Source: an uncultured Alphaproteobacteria bacterium
GTDB taxonomy: Bacteria; Pseudomonadota; Alphaproteobacteria; Rs-D84; CACZYB01
Direction: 5' to 3'
Length of the DNA: 64,000 nt
Assembly: GCA_944390685.1 (NCBI GenBank)
Contig: CALXQL010000006.1
Coordinates: 24,108-88,107 of the forward strand
Shown here: piece after piece, positions 1-8,706 of the stretch
How the letters are laid out: the number at the start of each line of letters is the position of its first letter
How positions within the stretch are numbered: position 1 is the first letter of the stretch
Made by a program: the position numbers and the translations under genes
Notes under the pieces: model-generated
The model's database searches: none
Told to the model about the DNA's origin: nothing
Seen by the model: the letters and a program-made list of their open reading frames with translations, nothing else

Positions 1-786
1 TTTTGGAAAAAAAAAGGTTATGATTTTGGGAAAAGGGTATTAAATAAATTTGATAAAGAATTTTTCATAAAATGTGTTAAAAATTTACCAAATGGACAAT
101 TATGGTTACGTCAGGGATGGATTTCCGATTGTTCTTTTTCTCAAGAATCTTGGAAACTAATAGCTGAAATTAGTTCGTTACTAAATTCTTTTAAAATTAG
201 ATTACTTATAATAACAAAGATTCACTATACTCCTAAAAAATCTACTTTGGTAGAACTGGCTAAAAATAATGTTGAAATTAGAGTGTCTTTGTCTGCTCTT
301 GATACTGAAAAAGAATATAAAAACAGATTAAAATTTTTAAATATGTATAGAGATTTAGGAGGATTATCTATACCTTATATAATGTCATCTAAATATAAAA
401 ATGAAGAATTGAATAAAAATCAACTAGTTTTGGTTAATTATGTTATTGAAAATGATTTTATAGCAGGGGAACATCCTCTGCGGTTTGATAAAGGGAATGA
501 AATAATTAAAGATTTAGAAGAATGTGGATTTTCACATACTAAATTTCCAAATCAATATTGGTTTGGTAGACTTTTTTATAATATTCCAAACTTTATTTTG
601 CCACCACCTACCCATTTGAAAGAAAATTATTTCTTACCTACTTGTTATTTCTCACATTTAGATATGGAACATAAAATTGTTGGGTTAGATGGAAATTTAC
701 CAACATTTGAACAATTATCGAAAGATTCAACTCAAAAAACGGAAGGCTTAATGAAACATGCAGAATATGTTATACAAAAATATTAA
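1..786 (+). CDS. Hypothetical protein, 5'-truncated by the window edge. The reading frame is open from position 1, and the ORF track reports only from the first Met at 247.
   Basis: Frame 1 has no stop between position 1 and the TAA at 784-786. No recognised catalytic motifs. Faint resemblance to TIM-barrel beta strands of radical-SAM/photolyase-like proteins (IRVSLSALD), not supportable without an HMM search. Confidence 0.4.
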   Translation, partial: FWKKKGYDFGKRVLNKFDKEFFIKCVKNLPNGQLWLRQGWISDCSFSQESWKLIAEISSLLNSFKIRLLIITKIHYTPKKSTLVELAKNNVEIRVSLSALDTEKEYKNRLKFLNMYRDLGGLSIPYIMSSKYKNEELNKNQLVLVNYVIENDFIAGEHPLRFDKGNEIIKDLEECGFSHTKFPNQYWFGRLFYNIPNFILPPPTHLKENYFLPTCYFSHLDMEHKIVGLDGNLPTFEQLSKDSTQKTEGLMKHAEYVIQKY

Positions 787-1438
787 CAAGCAATTTTTTA
801 ACAGGATTAATGATGCTTTTAATGCATTAAAAAAAGATGGATATTATATTTTTAATGCAGGTAATTTATCAAAAGAAGACTTCTTAAATTTTTCTTATAG
901 CTTTGGAGAAGTGATTCCATCAGGTAGAGGAAAGGAAATGGTAGATGATATTTTTATAGGAGGTATCCAAAAACAAAGTTCATTACCTCTACATACAGAC
1001 AAAAGTTATTGGCGATTACCTCCTAGTTTTGAAATACTGTATGTTAATGATGTTTATAATATGAAGCATGGAGAAATAATCGTTGGAAATTTATTGGAAG
1101 CATTTAAACAACTGTCACCTGTGGAACAAAAAGAATTACTTGATTTTGAAGCGGTATACAAATCTCCTCAAAATAGAGATGAAGGAACAATAAAAGTAAA
1201 GTTAATTGGAAAAATAGATGATGATATATCTTTTTTTAGGTATAGATTGGATATTTTTGATTCATCAAGTCCTACAATAACTAAATGGAATAATATAATA
1301 AAGGATAACTTAATTTTTGTTCCTTATAGAAAAGGAGATGTTCTCATTCTTGATAATAAATTACACTGTGCAGGAAGAAATAATACTACATGGGGAGAAA
1401 ATGGTTCAAGACATTTATATAGAACATTAGTTATGTAA
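758..1438 (+). CDS. TauD/TfdA-family Fe(II)/2-oxoglutarate dioxygenase-like protein
   Basis: 226 aa. Has LPLHTDKSYW (an HxD iron-binding motif) and a distal His in LHCAGRNNTTW, typical of the TauD/gamma-butyrobetaine hydroxylase fold. Overlaps the upstream ORF by 29 nt in another frame. Confidence 0.5.
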   Translation: MQNMLYKNINKQFFNRINDAFNALKKDGYYIFNAGNLSKEDFLNFSYSFGEVIPSGRGKEMVDDIFIGGIQKQSSLPLHTDKSYWRLPPSFEILYVNDVYNMKHGEIIVGNLLEAFKQLSPVEQKELLDFEAVYKSPQNRDEGTIKVKLIGKIDDDISFFRYRLDIFDSSSPTITKWNNIIKDNLIFVPYRKGDVLILDNKLHCAGRNNTTWGENGSRHLYRTLVM

Positions 1439-1478
1439 AACTATAAAATTATGTAAAACATACAATATATTCTTTCAA

Positions 1479-2330
1479 TTAATGTGTGTTTTGAAATGTT
1501 TTTATAATTGTGTCTTTTGTTATATTGTTTGAATTAAATTTACGAAGTTCTTGTCCACACAAAACAATTGGAAGTTTATTTTTTCTAGCAAAATTATAAA
1601 ATGGTTGTTCGAAAGGGTATCTTTTTTTTTGAATATCTAGTAATACTCCATGAGGATATAATTCTTCTAGAATAATTCCAACAATAGAATATGTTTTGAT
1701 TTGTTTTTGACAAAAATCTTTATCCGCATGAAAATCTACTACTGTGTTTATTAAATTTGCATAATACTGAATTTCTTTATTCATATCAGCAATATTTACA
1801 AATGAAGCTAAGTGTTCATTAATATATTCAAAACAACCAGGTGCTAATTTTGAAAGTCGAATTGTTTCCATTCCAGACATTTCTTCTATATAATCTTTAT
1901 TTTTGTCCCATGCTACATCATATATGGAAAATGGAAATGTTTCATCATAATCAGGTAATATACTAATATATTTAAATTCAACATTTTCTGCTGAAAAAAA
2001 TTCTTTAAGTTGTTCATTTAAAAATTGTACTTTCTTATATTGTGTTTTTTCTCTAAGTACATTAACATTCGATGTTAATGCATTACTATGCAAAGAAAAA
2101 AAAATTAAATCATTTTTTGATAATCCTAATAATAACGAATTTATGAAAGAAAAGTATGTTCTTTTGGAAAGAAATCCGAGTTCTTGTATAAAGGAAACCA
2201 TTCTATATAAAAACTTTATAAATGCATCTGTTTGGAATTTTTGTAAGTTTGTTAAACCTATCGACTTAAATAAATCTGGATTATGATGTTCGATATCAAA
2301 AATTATCTTTCTAATATATTTTTCTTCCAT
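1479..2330 (-). CDS. Hypothetical protein (283 aa), no recognisable domain
   Basis: Long ORF with the lysine/asparagine/isoleucine-rich composition typical of genes in this window. No signal peptide and no family motif identified. Confidence 0.45.
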   Translation of the reverse strand: MEEKYIRKIIFDIEHHNPDLFKSIGLTNLQKFQTDAFIKFLYRMVSFIQELGFLSKRTYFSFINSLLLGLSKNDLIFFSLHSNALTSNVNVLREKTQYKKVQFLNEQLKEFFSAENVEFKYISILPDYDETFPFSIYDVAWDKNKDYIEEMSGMETIRLSKLAPGCFEYINEHLASFVNIADMNKEIQYYANLINTVVDFHADKDFCQKQIKTYSIVGIILEELYPHGVLLDIQKKRYPFEQPFYNFARKNKLPIVLCGQELRKFNSNNITKDTIIKTFQNTH

Positions 2331-2444
2331 TTATAAATACCTAAAATATACCTAACGGTATAATAGTAATCTATTATTGTATTTTGTCAATATTTACTTG
2401 CAACTAATTACAATTTCATATATAATAGTATATATAGTTAGATT

Positions 2445-3125
2445 ATGAGGTATGCTATGCTGTTATTTTTATTAGGAGGAACTAATATTTCAAAAGAAGA
2501 AAAGAATAATTTAAATCCTCCTTTTTCTTCATTGGAATTTGATGTGGAATTTTTGAAACTTGTAAAAAAAAATAAACCAAATATTCTTTTATTACCTACT
2601 GCCAGTGAAATATTAGATAGAGAACATATTTATGAGAAGCGATTTATTAAACAATTTAAGGAATATTTAAATTGTAATGTGGATTCTTTATATTTATCCA
2701 AAATTCGTTCTACAATTAAAATTCAAAAAAAGTTAGATTGGGCAGATTGTTTTTATATATCAGGTGGGGATCCAATTCAACTATTGAATATTTGGAATGA
2801 ATCTAATTTTATAAAATTATTTAAAAAGCAAATACAAACTAAGCCAGTATATGCGGTTAGTGCTGGAGCAATGATTTTTTTTAAATATGCATTGAATGGA
2901 AATAATGAAAAAGCAACTATTAAAAAAAATGGATTAAATTTTATTTCTGGATTATGTGTTCCTCATTTTAATAGACAAGAGTTGCTTCCTTTGAAAAAAA
3001 AATTACTATCAGATAATAAATACAAAATATACGGAATAAATGATGGTGAAATTCTTTTACTAAATGAAAAAGGCTCAATATATTATAGAGATAAAGAATG
3101 GCATATTTCCTCGTTAGAAGAATAG
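2445..3125 (+). CDS. Peptidase S51 family (dipeptidase E / cyanophycinase-like)
   Basis: 226 aa. Has LLLPTAS near the N-terminus, ISGGDP (the GG(N/D) motif of S51 peptidases) and AVSAGAMIF (nucleophile-Ser region). Confidence 0.55.
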   Translation: MRYAMLLFLLGGTNISKEEKNNLNPPFSSLEFDVEFLKLVKKNKPNILLLPTASEILDREHIYEKRFIKQFKEYLNCNVDSLYLSKIRSTIKIQKKLDWADCFYISGGDPIQLLNIWNESNFIKLFKKQIQTKPVYAVSAGAMIFFKYALNGNNEKATIKKNGLNFISGLCVPHFNRQELLPLKKKLLSDNKYKIYGINDGEILLLNEKGSIYYRDKEWHISSLEE

Positions 3126-3802
3126 ATATTTCTAAAAAAGGAAACAATTTTAGACTACTAGATATACTCGTAAACCTTAACATAAGACAGGCTCTATCTT
3201 ACAGAAACGATAAAAAAATTCCATAATTGTAAGTTTGAAATTTATAGTAGCAAAATTAGAAGATATTCGAGTAATTAAGGACTTCAAACAATGGCAAGAA
3301 ACCTATAAAAAGATTGAATATTTCAAGAAAAACTATACGTAAAATCACCAGATAAATATAGCCTATCAAAATATAAAAAATAAACTCACCTAACTTTGTA
3401 ACCCTATGGGAACGAAGTGAAAAATTAATTCTTTAAGATTTTCCAATAACCACTATTATCTGGACCAACTCGTTTAATAAAGCCATTTTGTTAGTTTGTT
3501 AAGATTATACTTTATTCCATCAGGAGAAATACCTATCTTATCATATAACTATTGTCTTGTAATTTTAGGATTTTTAGTTAATAAGTCTAAAATTTTCTGG
3601 GTAGTGTTTTGCTTTTTTGGGGTAGTAGATTTTAAAAATAATTTAATCTGCATTTCTTCATTATTAAGAAGATTTTTCTTACCCAAAAGAATTAAACTTA
3701 AAATATACTAGTGTTAAAAATAAAAATTAACATAAAATATTACTTGAGTTATATCAAAATAAAAACGTATAATAAAAAATTATAACTAAAAGGGTTTATA
3801 AA

Positions 3803-5574
3803 ATGAAGTTATCAAAAATAAGAATAAAGAATTTTCGTGGTCACATTGATACAACTGTAAATATATCAAATTTAAATGTTATAATAGGACCAAATGATAT
3901 TGGAAAATCATCAATAATAGATGCTTTTGATATATATTTTAATGATTATCCAATAGATATTTCAGATGTAAACGTATTTATACCAGAAAATACGCCCAAA
4001 ATTGTTGAAATTTCTTGTTCTTTTATTGTTGATAAAAATGAGGCAGTTACACTAGACGCTAGTGAAAATACAGCAACATCTTTAGCTTCAGAATACTTAT
4101 TAAATAAAGATGGATTTCTTGAAATCTGTAAAAAATATGATTTTAGTACAAATAAAATAAAAAAAAGTATTCAGATTATAACAAAACACCCATCTAATTT
4201 TACACCTGCATTAATATTACAAAAAATAAACGATTTAAAAAAATTAGCTTCTGATAATAATATTACCCCAACTAATAATAATATAAAAAAAGACATAAGA
4301 AAAGCGATTTTTGAACAATATCCTAACTTAAATTGGGATAATGAATTTACTATTGAAGTAGAAGCAAAGGAAAACGATATTACACAAATTTTTAATAAAT
4401 TCAAAGACGATTTTCCAACATATATGGTTTTTCGTGCAGATAGAACAAATACAGATAAAGATAAAGATAAAGAAGTTAGTGAAACCACAAATGCAATTAC
4501 AAAAAGTGTTGTATCAGAACTAGAAAACGAATTTAATAATATAAAAAATAAAATAACAGATCAAATAAATACTTTAGCACAAAAAACACTCGAAAAACTA
4601 AAATTATTCGATGAAAATATATCAAATAGTTTAAAATCAAATATACAAACAAAACAACTATCCTCTTTATTTTCATTTACATTTGATTGTGATAATGGAA
4701 TTTCATTTAATAAAAGAGGAAGTGGTGTAAAAAGATTAATGTTATTAAGTTTTTTTCTTGCTGATGCAGAACAAAAAAATACAAACAAAACATTATATAC
4801 GCAATAGAAGAACCTGAAACATCACAACATCCAGATTATCAAATAATGTTAATAAATTCTTTAAAAGATTTATCAGATAAAAATAACAGACAAATAATAA
4901 TCACTACACATACTCCAGAAATAGTAAAAATTGTAAAAAAAGAAAATCTAATCTTTTTAAATAAAGATAGATCAAATATACTAAAGATACAACAAAATGA
5001 AACTTTAGAAATCAAAAAAATTGTTGATAATTTAGGAATTCTACCATATGTATCTTATAAAGAGGTAATATTTGTAGAAGGAAAAACTGATATAAGTTTT
5101 CTTAAAAATTTAAATCAATTTCAAGACTGTAAGAATATAATTGATATAACGCAATTTTCAATTATAGAATTAAATGGTTGTGCTAATGTTGATACATGGA
5201 TAAAAAATGACTATTTAGAAAATTCAAATATTAAACGTTTATATTTTCGAGATAGGAATAATAATAAAATAGAAACGGAAAATCAAAAAAACAATGTTAT
5301 AATAACAAAAAAAAGAGAAATAGAAAATTATATACCATATAATTTAATTGAAAACTACTTCAATATTGCTTTCACAAAAACAGAAAAAGAAAATTGGAAT
5401 GATATAGATGTTACTAAACATATACGAGGTAAAATAAATAACAAATACAAAAATGAAGATATAAAAAGAATATTAGAATCTCGAGATATATGGAATAATT
5501 TAAAATTACCAGATGATAGTATGAATGAAATAAAAGAATGGTTTAATAAAATAAAAAACTATTTTGATGACTAA
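3803..5574 (+). pseudogene. OLD-family ATP-dependent endonuclease (ABC-type ATPase plus C-terminal Toprim; class-1 OLD or fused PARIS AriAB-like), interrupted by a +1/-1 frameshift in an A7 tract
   Basis: N-terminus MKLSKIRIKNFRGHIDTTVNISNLNVIIGPNDIGKSSIIDAF is the OLD/AAA_15 Walker A. The ABC signature-like KRGSGVKRLMLLSFFLA lies before the break. Part 1 runs 3803..4807 in frame 2 and ends TLYTQ*. A different frame (frame 1) is open from 4765 after an in-frame TGA (4762-4764) and reads IIYAIEEPETSQHPDYQIM...QIIITTHTPE (Walker B and H-loop) up to the ATG at 4846 where the ORF track starts the second ORF. The second part also carries VIFVEGKTDISFLKNL, a Toprim motif. The reading frames swap at acaaaaaaatacaaacaaaa (4771..4790). 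Confidence 0.7.
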
Positions 5575-5798
5575 TTAATAGAATTTATAACGTATTGATT
5601 TTAAGAACTTCCTTTATAAATAAGAAAATAAAAATGAATACAGAAGAAGTAACAAATAAACTTATTAATTATATTCAACAAGCAAGAACATATCCATAAA
5701 AAAACAAATGATAAATCTATATTAGTAGCCAGATCTTTATATAGTGTAATTATTAGTCTAGCAAATAATGTTATATTTTGTATAAAAAACAACGAAAT

Positions 5799-6053
5799 TT
5801 ATTCTGCAAATGCTATAAATTGTAAATGCTTTTTATTCCAATGCCTACCAAGAATATTGCACTCTATCTGCTTCATTATTCGTTTCAGATTGTCTATTGA
5901 TGTGTATAAATTACTACTTTTTATATTCTCATGAAACTGTATTGTTAGCATATAGTTCGGCTTATATGTATCATCTATCCATTTCTTTAGCTCTTCCTTT
6001 ATTCTCATATTATTATGATATTGCTTCCATCTAGTTACCATACTTTCTATCAT
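5799..6053 (-). CDS. Short ORF (84 aa), possible N-terminal remnant of an HUH rolling-circle replication/relaxase-type protein
   Basis: MLTIQFHE resembles Rep motif I (uTuTu). About 40 aa downstream, KKHLQFIAF resembles motif II (an HuQ variant). The ORF stops before any motif III tyrosine. Weak, motif-level only. Confidence 0.3.
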   Translation of the reverse strand: MIESMVTRWKQYHNNMRIKEELKKWIDDTYKPNYMLTIQFHENIKSSNLYTSIDNLKRIMKQIECNILGRHWNKKHLQFIAFAE

Positions 6054-6421
6054 TCATATTATCATTATGCTTAATTGTGACTAGAATTATAACAAACAAA
6101 AATTTAAGGTTTTGCGTTATAAAAGTTATGACAGACTTTCTCCAAACAGAAAGATTTACAGCCTATGTATACAAAAAGTCCTATTATAATTTTCTAGAAC
6201 CGAACAATCTTCTAAAACTAATAACTATTTAACAAAGTACTAAAAAAACGGTTTTACTTAAGTTAGTAACCATATGGTAACGAACTCTATTATAAAAAAA
6301 GGCCCCCATTTAACGAGAGCCTTTTTAGTAAGTTTATCACTAAAAAATTAACAATTTAATACATTACAATGAAAATTTTCTAAATACAAAATATCCTTAC
6401 ATGTAAAAGGGCTTTTTTTAT

Positions 6422-6551
6422 AATTAATGCTTCTCACAAAAATATGAGGTCTTAGCTCTGGATCCACAACTCAGGTCCCCTGTCCCTCCCTAGAGGTAGG
6501 GGCTAGGTTGTTATACCAGTATCCAGGGCTCCCATCATAAAAGCATTAATT
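6422..6551. repeat. GC-rich palindromic structured element of about 130 bp (candidate small RNA, att-site remnant or MITE/RPE-like element)
   Basis: Perfect 11-bp inverted repeats aattaatgctt (6422..6432) and aagcattaatt (6541..6551) flank a GC-rich core (6446..6536), in sharp contrast to the AT-rich surroundings. The inner stem gctctggat (6455..6463) pairs with atccagggc (6521..6529) allowing one G-U pair. Further internal hairpins include CCCUA/UAGGG. Confidence 0.45.
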
Positions 6552-6588
6552 AAGAAAAATTTTCACTGTACAAATTAATAAGACTAAA

Positions 6589-6777
6589 ATGAAAAGTAGT
6601 TTTACAATTTTAGGTGAATATATACAATCTAAATATCCAGATAAAACACTCACAGATTATGAAACAGATGTAATGGTAAATAATATAGTTCAGTTTTTTA
6701 CCATAGGTGCAAAAATGGCTTATAACTATAAGAAAAACGGCGAAAATCTACAAAAAACTGCGTACAAATCAAAATAA
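6589..6777 (+). CDS. Short ORF (62 aa) of unknown function inside the degraded island
   Basis: ORF only. It lies immediately upstream of the recombinase fragments and may be another fragment. Confidence 0.25.
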   Translation: MKSSFTILGEYIQSKYPDKTLTDYETDVMVNNIVQFFTIGAKMAYNYKKNGENLQKTAYKSK

Positions 6778-6809
6778 TCCCTGTATAATATTAATATAAA
6801 GAATATGAA

Positions 6810-7632
6810 ATGATTAAATTTATAAAACAACAAAGAGGTAAAATACTTATTGTTGCTAATACAATTGATCGTATTCAAAGAAGATTTAAAGAATACAGTT
6901 TGTTAGATGATCTTCGTCGTGATAATAAAATTGAAATGTATTTTATAAGAGAACGTTTAACTATTAACTCTAAATCAAACGGTTATGAAATTGGTACATG
7001 GACTCAGGGTATTATGTGAGTTCAACAATATGTTATGCAATCAAGTGATAACATAAAAAGAGCAAATAACGAAAGCCGTGATAAAGGTAGATGGTTGCAT
7101 AAAGCCCTATTTGATACATTAATTATAAAGATTAATCAACTCTTGCAATGGTTAAGATAGATTCAATAAAAGGTTCTCTTTTTGCTCAAATGTTAGAGCA
7201 ATTGCTAACTATGCAAATAAAATAGGTCTTACAACTGGCTCTGGTAGAAAAATAACTAAAAAGAATGCAAATTATATGATACATAATACTTTCTATTATG
7301 GAGTAATGAGAACTATTGATGTATACAGAGCTCATACATGTGGTAATTTAATTACTAAAGAATTGTTTGATAAAATTCAAGAAGTAGCTTCAGGAAAATG
7401 CAAACCTTCATTTACAAAAAGAGCTGATACATTTATTTTTAGTGGACTATTAAGATGTGCTATATGTGGTTGTGCTATAACACCTGAAAGACATACTAAA
7501 AATAATGGAAAAACTTATACATACTTAAGATGCTTTCATTATGATCATAATTGTAAGCAACTATTATTGAATAAAAATGTCGTTTTACAACAAATAAAAG
7601 AAAAAATTTTTGATAAAAAAGAGAGATTTTAA
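6810..7632 (+). pseudogene. Serine recombinase (resolvase-type catalytic domain, recombinase domain and zinc beta-ribbon) broken into at least three frames
   Basis: 6810..7019 encodes GKILIVANTIDRIQRR (the DRLxR motif of the resolvase catalytic domain) and KIEMYFIRERLTINSKSNGYEIG. 7021..7275 in other frames gives ...GLTTGSGRKITKKNANYMIHNTFYYGVM (recombinase domain). 7276..7632 gives FSGLLRCAICGCAITPERH...YTYLRCFHYDHNC, the zinc beta-ribbon of large serine recombinases. In-frame stops lie between the pieces, and no intact N-terminal Ser nucleophile region was found. Confidence 0.65.
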
Positions 7633-7729
7633 AAATCATAAATTCGAACTCTTTGCTTGATGGAAAAAAGATAGTATTTTCAATAGCTAAGCATTTGATT
7701 TGATAATAAAAAATGATGAAAGTGTAAGA

Positions 7730-7806
7730 TGGTGGGTGATGAGAGACTCGAACTCCCGACCCTCTCGGTGTAAACGAGATGCTCTAGCCAACTGAGCTAA
7801 TCACCC
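7730..7806 (-). tRNA. tRNA-Val (anticodon TAC)
   Basis: Minus-strand sequence GGGTGATTAGCTCAGTTGGCTAGAGCATCTCGTTTACACCGAGAGGGTCGGGAGTTCGAGTCTCTCATCACCCACCA. 7-bp acceptor stem, D loop AGCTCAGTTGG, anticodon loop TTTACAC, T loop GGTTCGAGTC, CCA encoded. Confidence 0.9.
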
Positions 7807-7905
7807 GAAAGATGTTATTATTATATAACTCTTTTTTCTTTTTTCAAGTCTTTTTTCTTGTTTTTTACATTTTTTATTTTATAGTCTTATTTAGAGGTAT
7901 TTATT

Positions 7906-8136
7906 ATGAATAATGATGAACTTATAAAAAAGGCTAAATTACTTGGTTTAACAGATCAAGAAATTCAACAATTCATTGAAAATCAAGAAATTGCAAAAAA
8001 GTATGGGATAGATGATGATTGTTATTCTATAAATGTAGAAATAGATGAATCTATATTAAATGAAAATAATCATCATCATTGCGATTGTGATGATGATTGT
8101 TGTGGTGAGTGTTGCTCTGAGTCTCATAATAACTAA
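7906..8136 (+). CDS. Small protein (76 aa) with a helical N-terminal half and an extremely Cys/His/Asp-rich C-terminus (putative metal-binding)
   Basis: An agagg RBS lies 7 nt upstream of the ATG. The C-terminal 25 aa are NNHHHCDCDDDCCGECCSESHNN (6 Cys, 4 His). The gene is convergent with dut, and its stop abuts the dut stop. Confidence 0.55.
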   Translation: MNNDELIKKAKLLGLTDQEIQQFIENQEIAKKYGIDDDCYSINVEIDESILNENNHHHCDCDDDCCGECCSESHNN

Positions 8137-8604
8137 TTAATTTGTTCCACTACTTCCAAAACCTGAAATTCTATTAGCTTTAGGAAGTTCTGTTTCATCT
8201 TTTACTATTTCCATATCAAGTTGATATACTGGTTCAATTACACATTGCCCTATTCTCATACCTCTTTCTATTACTATTGGCTCATTTGAAAGGTTGATTA
8301 CTATCATGTGAACCTCTCCTCTATATTCATTATCAATAGTTCCTACCCCATTTGGCATAGAAAGGCCTTGTTTTAAAGAAAGTCCACTTCGTGATCTTAT
8401 TTGATAACCAAAACCATCTTCCAATGCCAATTTAAAACCAAGTGGAATAAGGCATCTTTCTTTTGGTAATATAGTAATAGAAGGTTCTTTAATACATGCC
8501 CTTACATCAAAACCAGTATCAGAAGGATAAGCATATTTCATCGGTCCCCAATTTTTTAAATCATAATTTTCAAGATATAATATTTTCCCTTTTACTTTTT
8601 GCAT
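8137..8604 (-). CDS. dut: dUTP diphosphatase (dUTPase)
   Basis: 155 aa with the canonical motifs GFDVRA, RSRSGL, GTIDNEYRGE and GFGSSG. Confidence 0.9.
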   Translation of the reverse strand: MQKVKGKILYLENYDLKNWGPMKYAYPSDTGFDVRACIKEPSITILPKERCLIPLGFKLALEDGFGYQIRSRSGLSLKQGLSMPNGVGTIDNEYRGEVHMIVINLSNEPIVIERGMRIGQCVIEPVYQLDMEIVKDETELPKANRISGFGSSGTN

Positions 8605-8657
8605 TTAGATTTCCTTTCGTCTTAAGAAAGTTTAAAATATTTAATAAAAAAAGTAAA

Positions 8658-8690
8658 TTAAAAAAGCCACCATTTAAGGTGACTTTTGAT
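8658..8690 (-). terminator. Rho-independent terminator-like hairpin downstream of the 8707..9120 gene
   Basis: aaaaagccacc/ggtgactttt stem (8661..8687). On the minus-strand RNA a U-run follows the stem. Confidence 0.4.
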
Positions 8691-8706
8691 TTATTTTTTG
8701 AGTGAT

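Follow-up and report, generated by a model that had tools for sequence, protein, structure and literature searches.

How a compact, AT-rich bacterial genome comes to hold a gene-poor interval beside one of its tRNA genes is the question raised by a 64-kb stretch of DNA from an uncultured alphaproteobacterium (contig CALXQL010000006.1, positions 24,108 to 88,107; hereafter, the window). The window has a GC content of about 28% and is densely packed outside the interval between a peptidase S51 gene and tRNA-Val(tac), where coding density (3126-7806, open reading frames (ORFs) of at least 100 amino acids (aa)) falls to 0.45, against 0.92 in the rest of the 64 kb, and is the lowest of 119 sliding windows. 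A sequence-only reading of this locus had remarked on the low coding density and proposed a decayed integrative element inserted at tRNA-Val. This proposal is supported by an intact relative of the element (locus L037) and by borders located through comparison on the right (L005, L009, and L010) and on the left (L185): the stretch from about 3156 to 7729 very probably represents the remains of one small integrative element, mobilized by a large serine recombinase (LSR) of a family that targets tRNA genes. The OLD-family nuclease, HUH-Rep remnant, palindrome, and serine recombinase pieces named in that reading were found at or near the positions given there, in the following arrangement:

2445-3125: peptidase S51 gene (Pfam, E 3.9e-28)
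3126-3802: left, largely non-coding segment of the variable region, holding a winged-helix (HTH_24) remnant
~3437-3686, minus strand: winged-helix pseudogene remnant (HTH_24, E 8e-8 on the translation; four stop codons)
3803-5574, plus strand: pseudogene of an OLD-family ABC-ATPase and probable TOPRIM nuclease (Pfam, PADLOC, PHROG, and homology to L037)
5799-6053, minus strand: N-terminal stub of a HUH-type Rep-like protein, 84 codons (homology to the Rep-like family)
6292-6327, minus strand: terminator-like stem-loop with U-run, upstream of the Rep remnant (predicted fold)
6421-6553: GC-rich imperfect palindrome, 133 nucleotides (nt) (predicted fold)
6589-6777, plus strand: conserved 62-aa ORF (orf62), with homologues directly upstream of the LSR in relatives
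6798-7729, plus strand: LSR pseudogene (tblastn, Pfam, alignment)
7730-7806, minus strand: intact tRNA-Val(tac) (ARAGORN; Rfam, 67.3 bits)

Evidence for this reading comes from L037, where an intact element is found at tRNA-Gln(ctg). It encodes a Rep-like protein of 204 aa, DUF3768, a small resolvase, an OLD protein of 596 aa, a homologue of orf62, and an LSR of 519 aa, and both the homology and the gene order are observed directly. Because OLD, Rep, orf62, and LSR co-occur in this element, the segment 3803-7729 of the window can be explained by one element of known architecture, and since the four genes recur together, they are element genes and not core genes. Judged from its sequence, the copy in the window is dead: LSR, Rep, and OLD all carry lesions, and the resolvase, DUF3768, and the distal attachment (att) repeat are gone. 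Three independent metagenome assemblies (L001-L003) are 99.9-100% identical to the window over the interval and carry the same lesions, which are therefore real mutations and not assembly noise. An apparent 12-nt indel between the window and L001 turned out to be a run of N in the scaffold.

Both borders of the variable interval were established by comparison. Contigs of relatives were found via dut homologues of 57-68% identity, and four of them (L005, L009, L010, and L014) retain dut, a small ORF, and tRNA-Val(tac). In the alignment, similarity of the window to L005, L009, and L010 ends directly after the CCA end of the tRNA. On the left, a 1.6-kb contig (L185) is 93% identical at the nucleotide level over 1696-3122 (its S51 gene being 94% identical) and diverges at about 3156. 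The variable interval is thus delimited as ~3156-7729, close to the coordinates of the sequence-only reading. The synteny of relatives was also tried for the left border and set aside in favor of L185, as gene order beyond tRNA-Val is rearranged in all of them; the only more distant S51 homologue (L184, 59% identity) sits by a type I restriction-modification system and is uninformative for this border. The conserved synteny of dut and tRNA-Val contradicts, for the window, the idea that the adjacency arose from a tRNA carried by the element. The interval is also absent from relatives sharing its flanking gene sets, on the right in L005, L009, and L010 and on the left in L185, which argues against the view that it is ancestral chromosomal DNA that never belonged to a mobile element and simply eroded as the genome shrank. 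Such a view agrees with the GC content of 3126-7806 (0.247), which is near that of the genome (0.282 for the rest of the window), and with the absence of an att repeat; however, homologous modules are present at other tRNA genes of unrelated genomes, and in situ decay of ancestral DNA, contradicted by these comparisons, by the L037 element, and by the LSR-tRNA junctions of the family, is regarded as the least credible explanation of all.

The content found beyond tRNA-Val differs from one relative to another. In L005 (dut 68% identical), this region (10958-15536) holds a different set of defense-type genes: HNH_2, an Omp85/ShlB fragment, RloB with AAA_21, and RelB. In L009 (12582-14523), the tRNA is followed by genes for a lipoprotein with MORN repeats and for a small resolvase of 195 aa, which shares 83% identity with the resolvase of the L021 element, and there is no LSR in this region; it is probably what is left of a second copy of the element family, which inserted at the same tRNA and decayed on its own. 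In L010, metK is located about 300 nt past tRNA-Val, giving an empty-looking site. The post-tRNA genes of these three contigs are absent from the window, and the interval genes are absent from those contigs. Within this lineage, the tRNA-Val site acts as a hot spot to which islands have come repeatedly. The variation in cargo between L005 (HNH, RloB with AAA_21, RelB) and L009 (resolvase, MORN lipoprotein) is also compatible with a mosaic, in which several independent insertions or deletions left unrelated fragments, namely the winged-helix remnant, the palindrome, and possibly the OLD gene, beside an LSR element. Tandem arrays observed in L121 and L127, and the lack of homologues of the winged-helix remnant and of the palindrome in related elements, can be cited in support of a mosaic. 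However, the presence of OLD, Rep, orf62, and LSR together in the intact L037 element makes at least 3803-7729 one element, and no second integrase remnant occurs in the window. A mosaic origin of the interval is therefore considered possible but rather unlikely.

Several observations nevertheless weigh against a single element spanning the entire interval. The sequence-only reading had pointed to a repeat of the tRNA-Val 3' end as a mark of attL/attR, and this was not found: neither the window's nor the relatives' version of the tRNA 3' end recurs anywhere in the 64 kb, even at the generous settings used (up to 3 mismatches in 26 nt, up to 40% of 41 nt, up to 30% of 17-25 nt, and exact 10-mers within positions 1-16000). 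Without an att-like repeat a single precise integration cannot be demonstrated, and with the distal att lost, the left border rests on comparison only. Alignment to related genomes, likewise proposed in that reading, confirmed that the interval differs at both flanks and recovered no contiguous empty site: a truly empty junction of S51 with tRNA-Val was seen in no relative, and post-tRNA synteny is broken in all. The winged-helix remnant and the palindrome are without counterpart in related elements and may stem from other events, and the OLD and Rep genes are inverted relative to L037. The comparison of GC content with the flanks, for its part, shows little difference. Finally, recombination by this LSR clade is itself a prediction. 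The tRNA gene may preserve a hint of the integration. It is identical in three mutually divergent relatives (L005 10861-10937, L009 12373-12449, and L010 10850-10926), and the window's copy shows six differences from it, all within 34 nt of the 3' end and including two compensated T-stem pairs. These may be a trace of the element replacing the tRNA 3' end, although the att repeats of the family are only 15-20 nt long.

The question of which enzyme placed the element at tRNA-Val leads to the recombinase. The 3' end of the tRNA (7730, minus strand) faces the interval according to both ARAGORN and Rfam, and the LSR remnant ends at 7729, so the integrase directly adjoins the 3' end of an intact tRNA; its final conserved residues ('NSLLDGKKIVFSI') are kept directly before the tRNA. 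The remainder of the gene is heavily damaged. The tblastn matches fall into pieces covering query residues 69-172, 175-208, 214-353, and 468-492, in frames 0, 2, 1, and 0, respectively. The reconstructed protein matches only positions 55-103 of 145 of the Resolvase profile, followed by Recombinase (PF07508, E 1.1e-7) and Zn_ribbon_recom (PF13408, E 6.9e-8), and its closest homologues are 52-86% identical. At the N-terminus, about 68-72 codons are deleted, including the catalytic serine ('ARVSS' of relatives), a region that is present in L037, L104, L017, and L021. A TGA stands at a conserved Trp codon (7017-7019), there are three frame changes, and a gap of about 114 codons, corresponding to residues ~354-467 of relatives, falls where the coiled coil would be. 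The description of the recombinase as being in pieces is thus correct, with at least four pieces, but it understated the damage, as the catalytic-serine region and the putative coiled coil have been deleted too. The possibility of an alternative genetic code with TGA as a sense codon, which would explain in-frame TGAs in LSR copies, was rejected, because long ORFs across the window, of up to 979 aa, can be read with table 11. It is also worth noticing that the nearest LSR relatives have each been killed by a different single lesion, every one of which is seen in several assemblies. In L017-L020 there is a short deletion (L017 10440-10540), and in L021-L023 a GGA to TGA change (L021 8560-8610), both at the 'NKGRWLH' linker between the catalytic and recombinase domains; the TGG to TGA change of the window is located about 25 codons upstream of this linker. 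In L104, another close relative, the LSR is intact. This pattern may be a coincidence, or else may indicate a mutational or selective hot spot.

The placement of the LSR against a tRNA is not peculiar to the window. In L017-L022, a small ORF is followed by the LSR and then by a convergent tRNA (tRNA-Arg(acg) in L017-L020, tRNA-Lys(ctt) in L021), with the LSR ORF overlapping the tRNA 3' end by 30-42 nt. An alignment of the LSR was scanned against metagenome and genome collections, the best 80 of about 285 confirmed relatives being kept per scan; those kept are 28-73% identical to the query, and they occur in, among other hosts, Alphaproteobacteria of the gut and rumen (Candidatus Enterousia being one), Rickettsia endosymbionts, Patescibacteria, Elusimicrobia, and Babeliales. 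Scoring was possible at 149 loci, those whose contig contains the predicted LSR C-terminus. A convergent tRNA is located within 120 nt of this C-terminus at 116 of them, with an offset of exactly 0 nt at 92 of the 116; of the remaining 24, only two have an offset of more than 3 nt. At most of the 33 loci where no tRNA was called, there are tRNA 3' fragments or a contig end. The tRNAs used comprise 22 anticodon species and at least 15 amino-acid types. At eight junctions that were read directly, the CCA is read in frame as TGG (Trp), the exception being an Elusimicrobia tRNA without encoded CCA. Distal direct repeats of the tRNA 3' end measure 20 nt in L109 (at a distance of 10.2 kb), 19 nt in L127 (6.6 kb), and 15 nt in L121 (in a tandem array marked by a 31-nt fragment), and in these three the blocks of identity stop at the T-loop; such a repeat is also present in L179. 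At some loci (L081, L085, L083, L174, L074, and L176), the LSR is followed by only 9-25 nt of tRNA-like 3' sequence (e.g., TGGCTGGCCAGAGAGGATTCGAACC) and then by unrelated DNA; these tRNA-less junctions could be non-integrated attP sites or the outer junctions of tandem arrays.

These junctions also bear on the proposal that a tyrosine integrase, since lost, placed the element at tRNA-Val, with the serine recombinase as a passenger or resolvase. Tyrosine integrases classically target the 3' ends of tRNA genes, and the window retains no att repeat that could reveal the mechanism. However, no tyrosine-recombinase remnant occurs in any frame of the interval, and an LSR ORF abutting a tRNA at 116 loci, to the nucleotide at 92, is expected only if the LSR's attP overlaps its own 3' end. 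Placement by a tyrosine integrase is accordingly thought very improbable. The sequence-only reading had called the arrangement at tRNA-Val the classic one for integration; the geometry was confirmed, and the word classic does not apply, since a serine recombinase in the role of integrase is unusual at a tRNA.

In the mechanism proposed for the family, the LSR would insert the element at tRNA 3' ends, its gene being located at the edge of the element and convergent with the tRNA. Integration would exchange the last ~15-20 nt of the tRNA for a copy carried by the element, leaving the tRNA intact and a short direct repeat at the far end. Besides the LSR, the backbone comprises an ORF of 54-62 aa just upstream of it, a HUH-type Rep-like protein of ~155-200 aa, DUF3768, and a small resolvase or invertase, and the cargo, which varies, includes an OLD-family nuclease; intact relatives measure ~6.6-10 kb at the two loci with both att ends. 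The enzyme would use the dyad symmetry of the T-arm DNA, probably exchanging strands at the dyad center (the T-loop) or immediately 3' of it; in that case, half of the T-stem and the acceptor 3' strand would come from the element. For the window, a single integration event catalyzed by the LSR would account for the entire stretch, with the crossover at the position predicted for the family.

The literature offers little precedent for such a family. Serine-integrase islands were reported at t(m)RNA genes in 14 of 297 cases, compared to 44.5% for tyrosine integrases, and these serine-integrase sites were called previously unreported and needing proof (Mageeney et al., 2020; PMC7192596). In a large survey of LSRs, targets were analyzed as protein-coding genes only, and tRNA is unmentioned (Durrant et al., 2022; PMC10083194). 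No description of the clade was found in the literature searched, which was covered in part, and the term undescribed is used provisionally. On balance, we incline, by a modest measure, to the view that the integrase of the window is a relic left by a widespread, hitherto undescribed LSR clade whose natural attB is the tRNA 3' end, probably palindromic T-arm DNA with crossover at the T-loop, and which has switched among at least 15 amino-acid types while keeping the exact in-frame junction of C-terminus and CCA.

The remaining backbone genes of the relic can be considered in the light of the intact relatives. The possible HUH-Rep remnant of the sequence-only reading was confirmed: the ORF at 5799-6053 is 57% identical to the N-terminus of a Rep-like family of 155-204 aa (56.5% in tblastn against the L021 Rep). 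In a seven-member alignment, full-length relatives carry FISIQF (motif 1), WHFHLL (HUH), and a Tyr motif, Y-x-T-K (Y-x-T-K-x-I-K). The window copy ends with 'FIAFAE*', 5-6 residues short of the HUH motif, and the catalytic Tyr motif is missing as well. The match of full-length relatives to the Pfam family REP_ORF2-G2P is weak (E 6e-5 and 7e-4; 20-24 bits against a cut-off of 27.8). The stem-loop at 6292-6327 accounts for a spurious Phe_leader match in the Rfam scan; it was not called by a simple terminator scan.

The palindrome stands out by composition, with ~58% GC in 60-nt windows against a background of 25%, and by its predicted fold of -51.7 kcal/mol (z -4.3), which none of 200 shuffles equaled; a second fold test gave z -3.3. 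It ends in 13-bp perfect terminal inverted repeats (TTAATTAATGCTT/AAGCATTAATTAA). No other copy was found in the window, in L001-L012, or in plasmids, phages, and viral contigs by blastn and pattern scan, no match by blastn of 3126-6810 against L001-L183 at word size 11, no Rfam family at E up to 1, and no GC-rich counterpart in the regions checked of four related elements (L017, L021, L037, and L104). The palindrome could be the origin used by Rep, the leader of an orf62-LSR operon, or an RPE-like miniature element. Homologues of orf62 (33-56% identity) are located directly upstream of the LSR in L017-L022, L024, L025, L037, L104, L113-L120, and others. They have 54-62 aa (54-55 aa in L017-L022), and orf62 has no Pfam or PHROG match. 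A small ORF beside an LSR is a frequent location of directionality factors, and orf62 is a candidate accessory or directionality factor.

The OLD-family gene is split in two. Its first part (3803-4807) matches AAA_15 (Pfam, E 3e-37), and its second part (4795-5574) matches the end of AAA_15 (E 5e-17) together with a weak OLD-like TOPRIM match (E 4e-4; 21.2 bits, below the 23.2-bit cut-off). PADLOC labels the gene AriA/Old/GajA, and phrog_4747 covers both halves, which are 66% and 56% identical to the intact 596-aa gene of L037. The ATPase motifs are readable (Walker A 'GPNDIGKSS', Walker B 'IYAIEEPE'), and in the TOPRIM part 'VEGKTD' is kept, whereas the DxD motif reads DRN where L037 has DRD. 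The frameshift recognized in the sequence-only reading is a single one, located between ~4787 and 4795, and it is the same in all three assemblies. An A7 run was tried as the frameshift site and rejected, since alignment to the intact L037 protein puts the break a few codons further on, as a 1-nt loss after 'KNTNK'. A gene with only one frame change in ~590 codons and otherwise open halves, with A-runs near the break (A7 at 4773-4779, A4 at 4787-4790) and the same sequence in three assemblies, might still be functional if slippage on the A-rich tract, in translation or in transcription, bypassed the frameshift, or if the gene acted as a phase-variable switch. However, relative to L037, the break is not located within a long homopolymer, L001-L003 show no tract-length variation there, the DxD motif is DRN and not DRD, and all other element genes around it are dead, which makes a functional OLD gene quite improbable. 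As this gene is the sole recognizable defense cargo, the label of defense island given to the interval was generous, although OLD itself was rightly named.

The surroundings of the interval and the probable host deserve a short comment. The genes to the left (window 247-3125; L001 9651-11304) are also non-housekeeping and have few homologues; they encode a 329-aa protein of unknown function, a TauD-like dioxygenase, a 283-aa unknown protein, and peptidase S51, and RecA and LexA lie just outside the window start. On the other side of the tRNA, two adjoining secreted-looking proteins of 137 and 399 aa are encoded between dut and HU (8707-10334), the larger with a Thr/Glu-rich low-complexity stretch. 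They are 38-39% identical to their positional counterparts in L005, and the adjacent HU is 99% identical; by this comparison, they appear to be fast-evolving surface proteins. The dUTPase of the window is at most 58% identical to any named protein, the best being from a 'Rickettsiales bacterium' metagenome-assembled genome; exact copies were found in metagenome assemblies only, and dut as a single query against the genome-contig collection found no relative. Contigs identical to the window and contigs of the LSR family (L019, L131, L127, and L136) come mostly from gut and rumen metagenomes of human and animal origin (Hadza, 'BRZ', rumen RUG, deer, and horse). The organism may therefore be an AT-rich alphaproteobacterium associated with the gut, and not an arthropod endosymbiont of the classical kind.

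Taken by itself, the relic of the window represents ordinary erosion, a clean case of a small AT-rich genome dismantling a mobile element while keeping the tRNA. The clade to which its integrase belongs is, provisionally, new to the literature searched, yet of a known LSR type. Its interest lies in the fact that large-payload genome engineering relies chiefly on serine integrases and that protein-coding genes are commonly taken to be their natural targets. With more than 110 loci showing LSR-tRNA junctions (92 nucleotide-exact) in many phyla and at many tRNA species, the recognition of a tRNA gene by an LSR and the re-targeting of LSR specificity become directly testable. If the proposed reading of the clade is true, it would constitute a large exception to the rule that tyrosine integrases take tRNAs and serine integrases take protein genes, and would provide a natural set of LSR/attB pairs, located at conserved sites, that is ready for use.

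The comparison with known systems places each part of the relic. The OLD gene shares its ABC-ATPase and, probably, its TOPRIM part with OLD-family nucleases (P2 Old, class 1 OLD, GajA of Gabija, and AriA of PARIS), and the nearest solved structures are GajA (E 3.5e-12) and the OLD-family endonuclease 6p74. Unlike in Gabija or PARIS, it is a lone gene, with no GajB helicase or AriB partner beside it in the window or in L037, and unlike working OLD nucleases, the window copy is frameshifted and has an altered DxD. With the inovirus G2P/ORF2-type HUH Rep (PF23343), the full-length Rep-like relatives share motif 1, the HUH motif, and the Tyr motif, but they are short (155-204 aa) and under the Pfam cut-off, and the window copy retains motif 1 only.

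As for the LSR, intact relatives share the domain order Resolvase-Recombinase-zinc ribbon (E 4e-17, 3e-12, and 1e-9 in L037) with the phage and integrative conjugative element integrases Bxb1, phiC31, A118/LI Int, TP901-1, and CcrAB, and, by position, have a stretch of ~115 residues where characterized LSRs have the coiled coil. As in known LSRs, the gene is located at the edge of the element beside the att site. The differences are that the target is the tRNA 3' end instead of a protein-coding gene, that the ORF enters the tRNA antisense, and that the direct repeats, at 15-20 nt, are longer than the 2-bp crossover alone. Solved LSRs are very distant in sequence, the sole PDB sequence match being a resolvase catalytic domain (3guv, E 4e-4). 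Compared to working LSRs, the window copy is without the catalytic serine and the putative coiled coil, and by sequence it is a dead descendant of this group and not a working member. With the islands of tyrosine integrases at tRNA genes (P4-like, Islander-type, and RAGE in Rickettsiales), the family shares insertion at the tRNA 3' end, an integrase gene beside the tRNA, restoration of this end by the element, a far end marked by a short direct repeat derived from the tRNA, and variable defense-type cargo; however, the recombinase is unrelated, with a serine instead of a tyrosine nucleophile, and the interval holds no Phage_integrase domain. The integrases of SSV-type archaeal viruses have attP inside the int gene, so that the integrase coding sequence overlaps the attachment site, a tRNA gene. 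Those enzymes are tyrosine recombinases whose integration splits the gene, whereas here the last few codons overlap the tRNA and the ORF stays whole.

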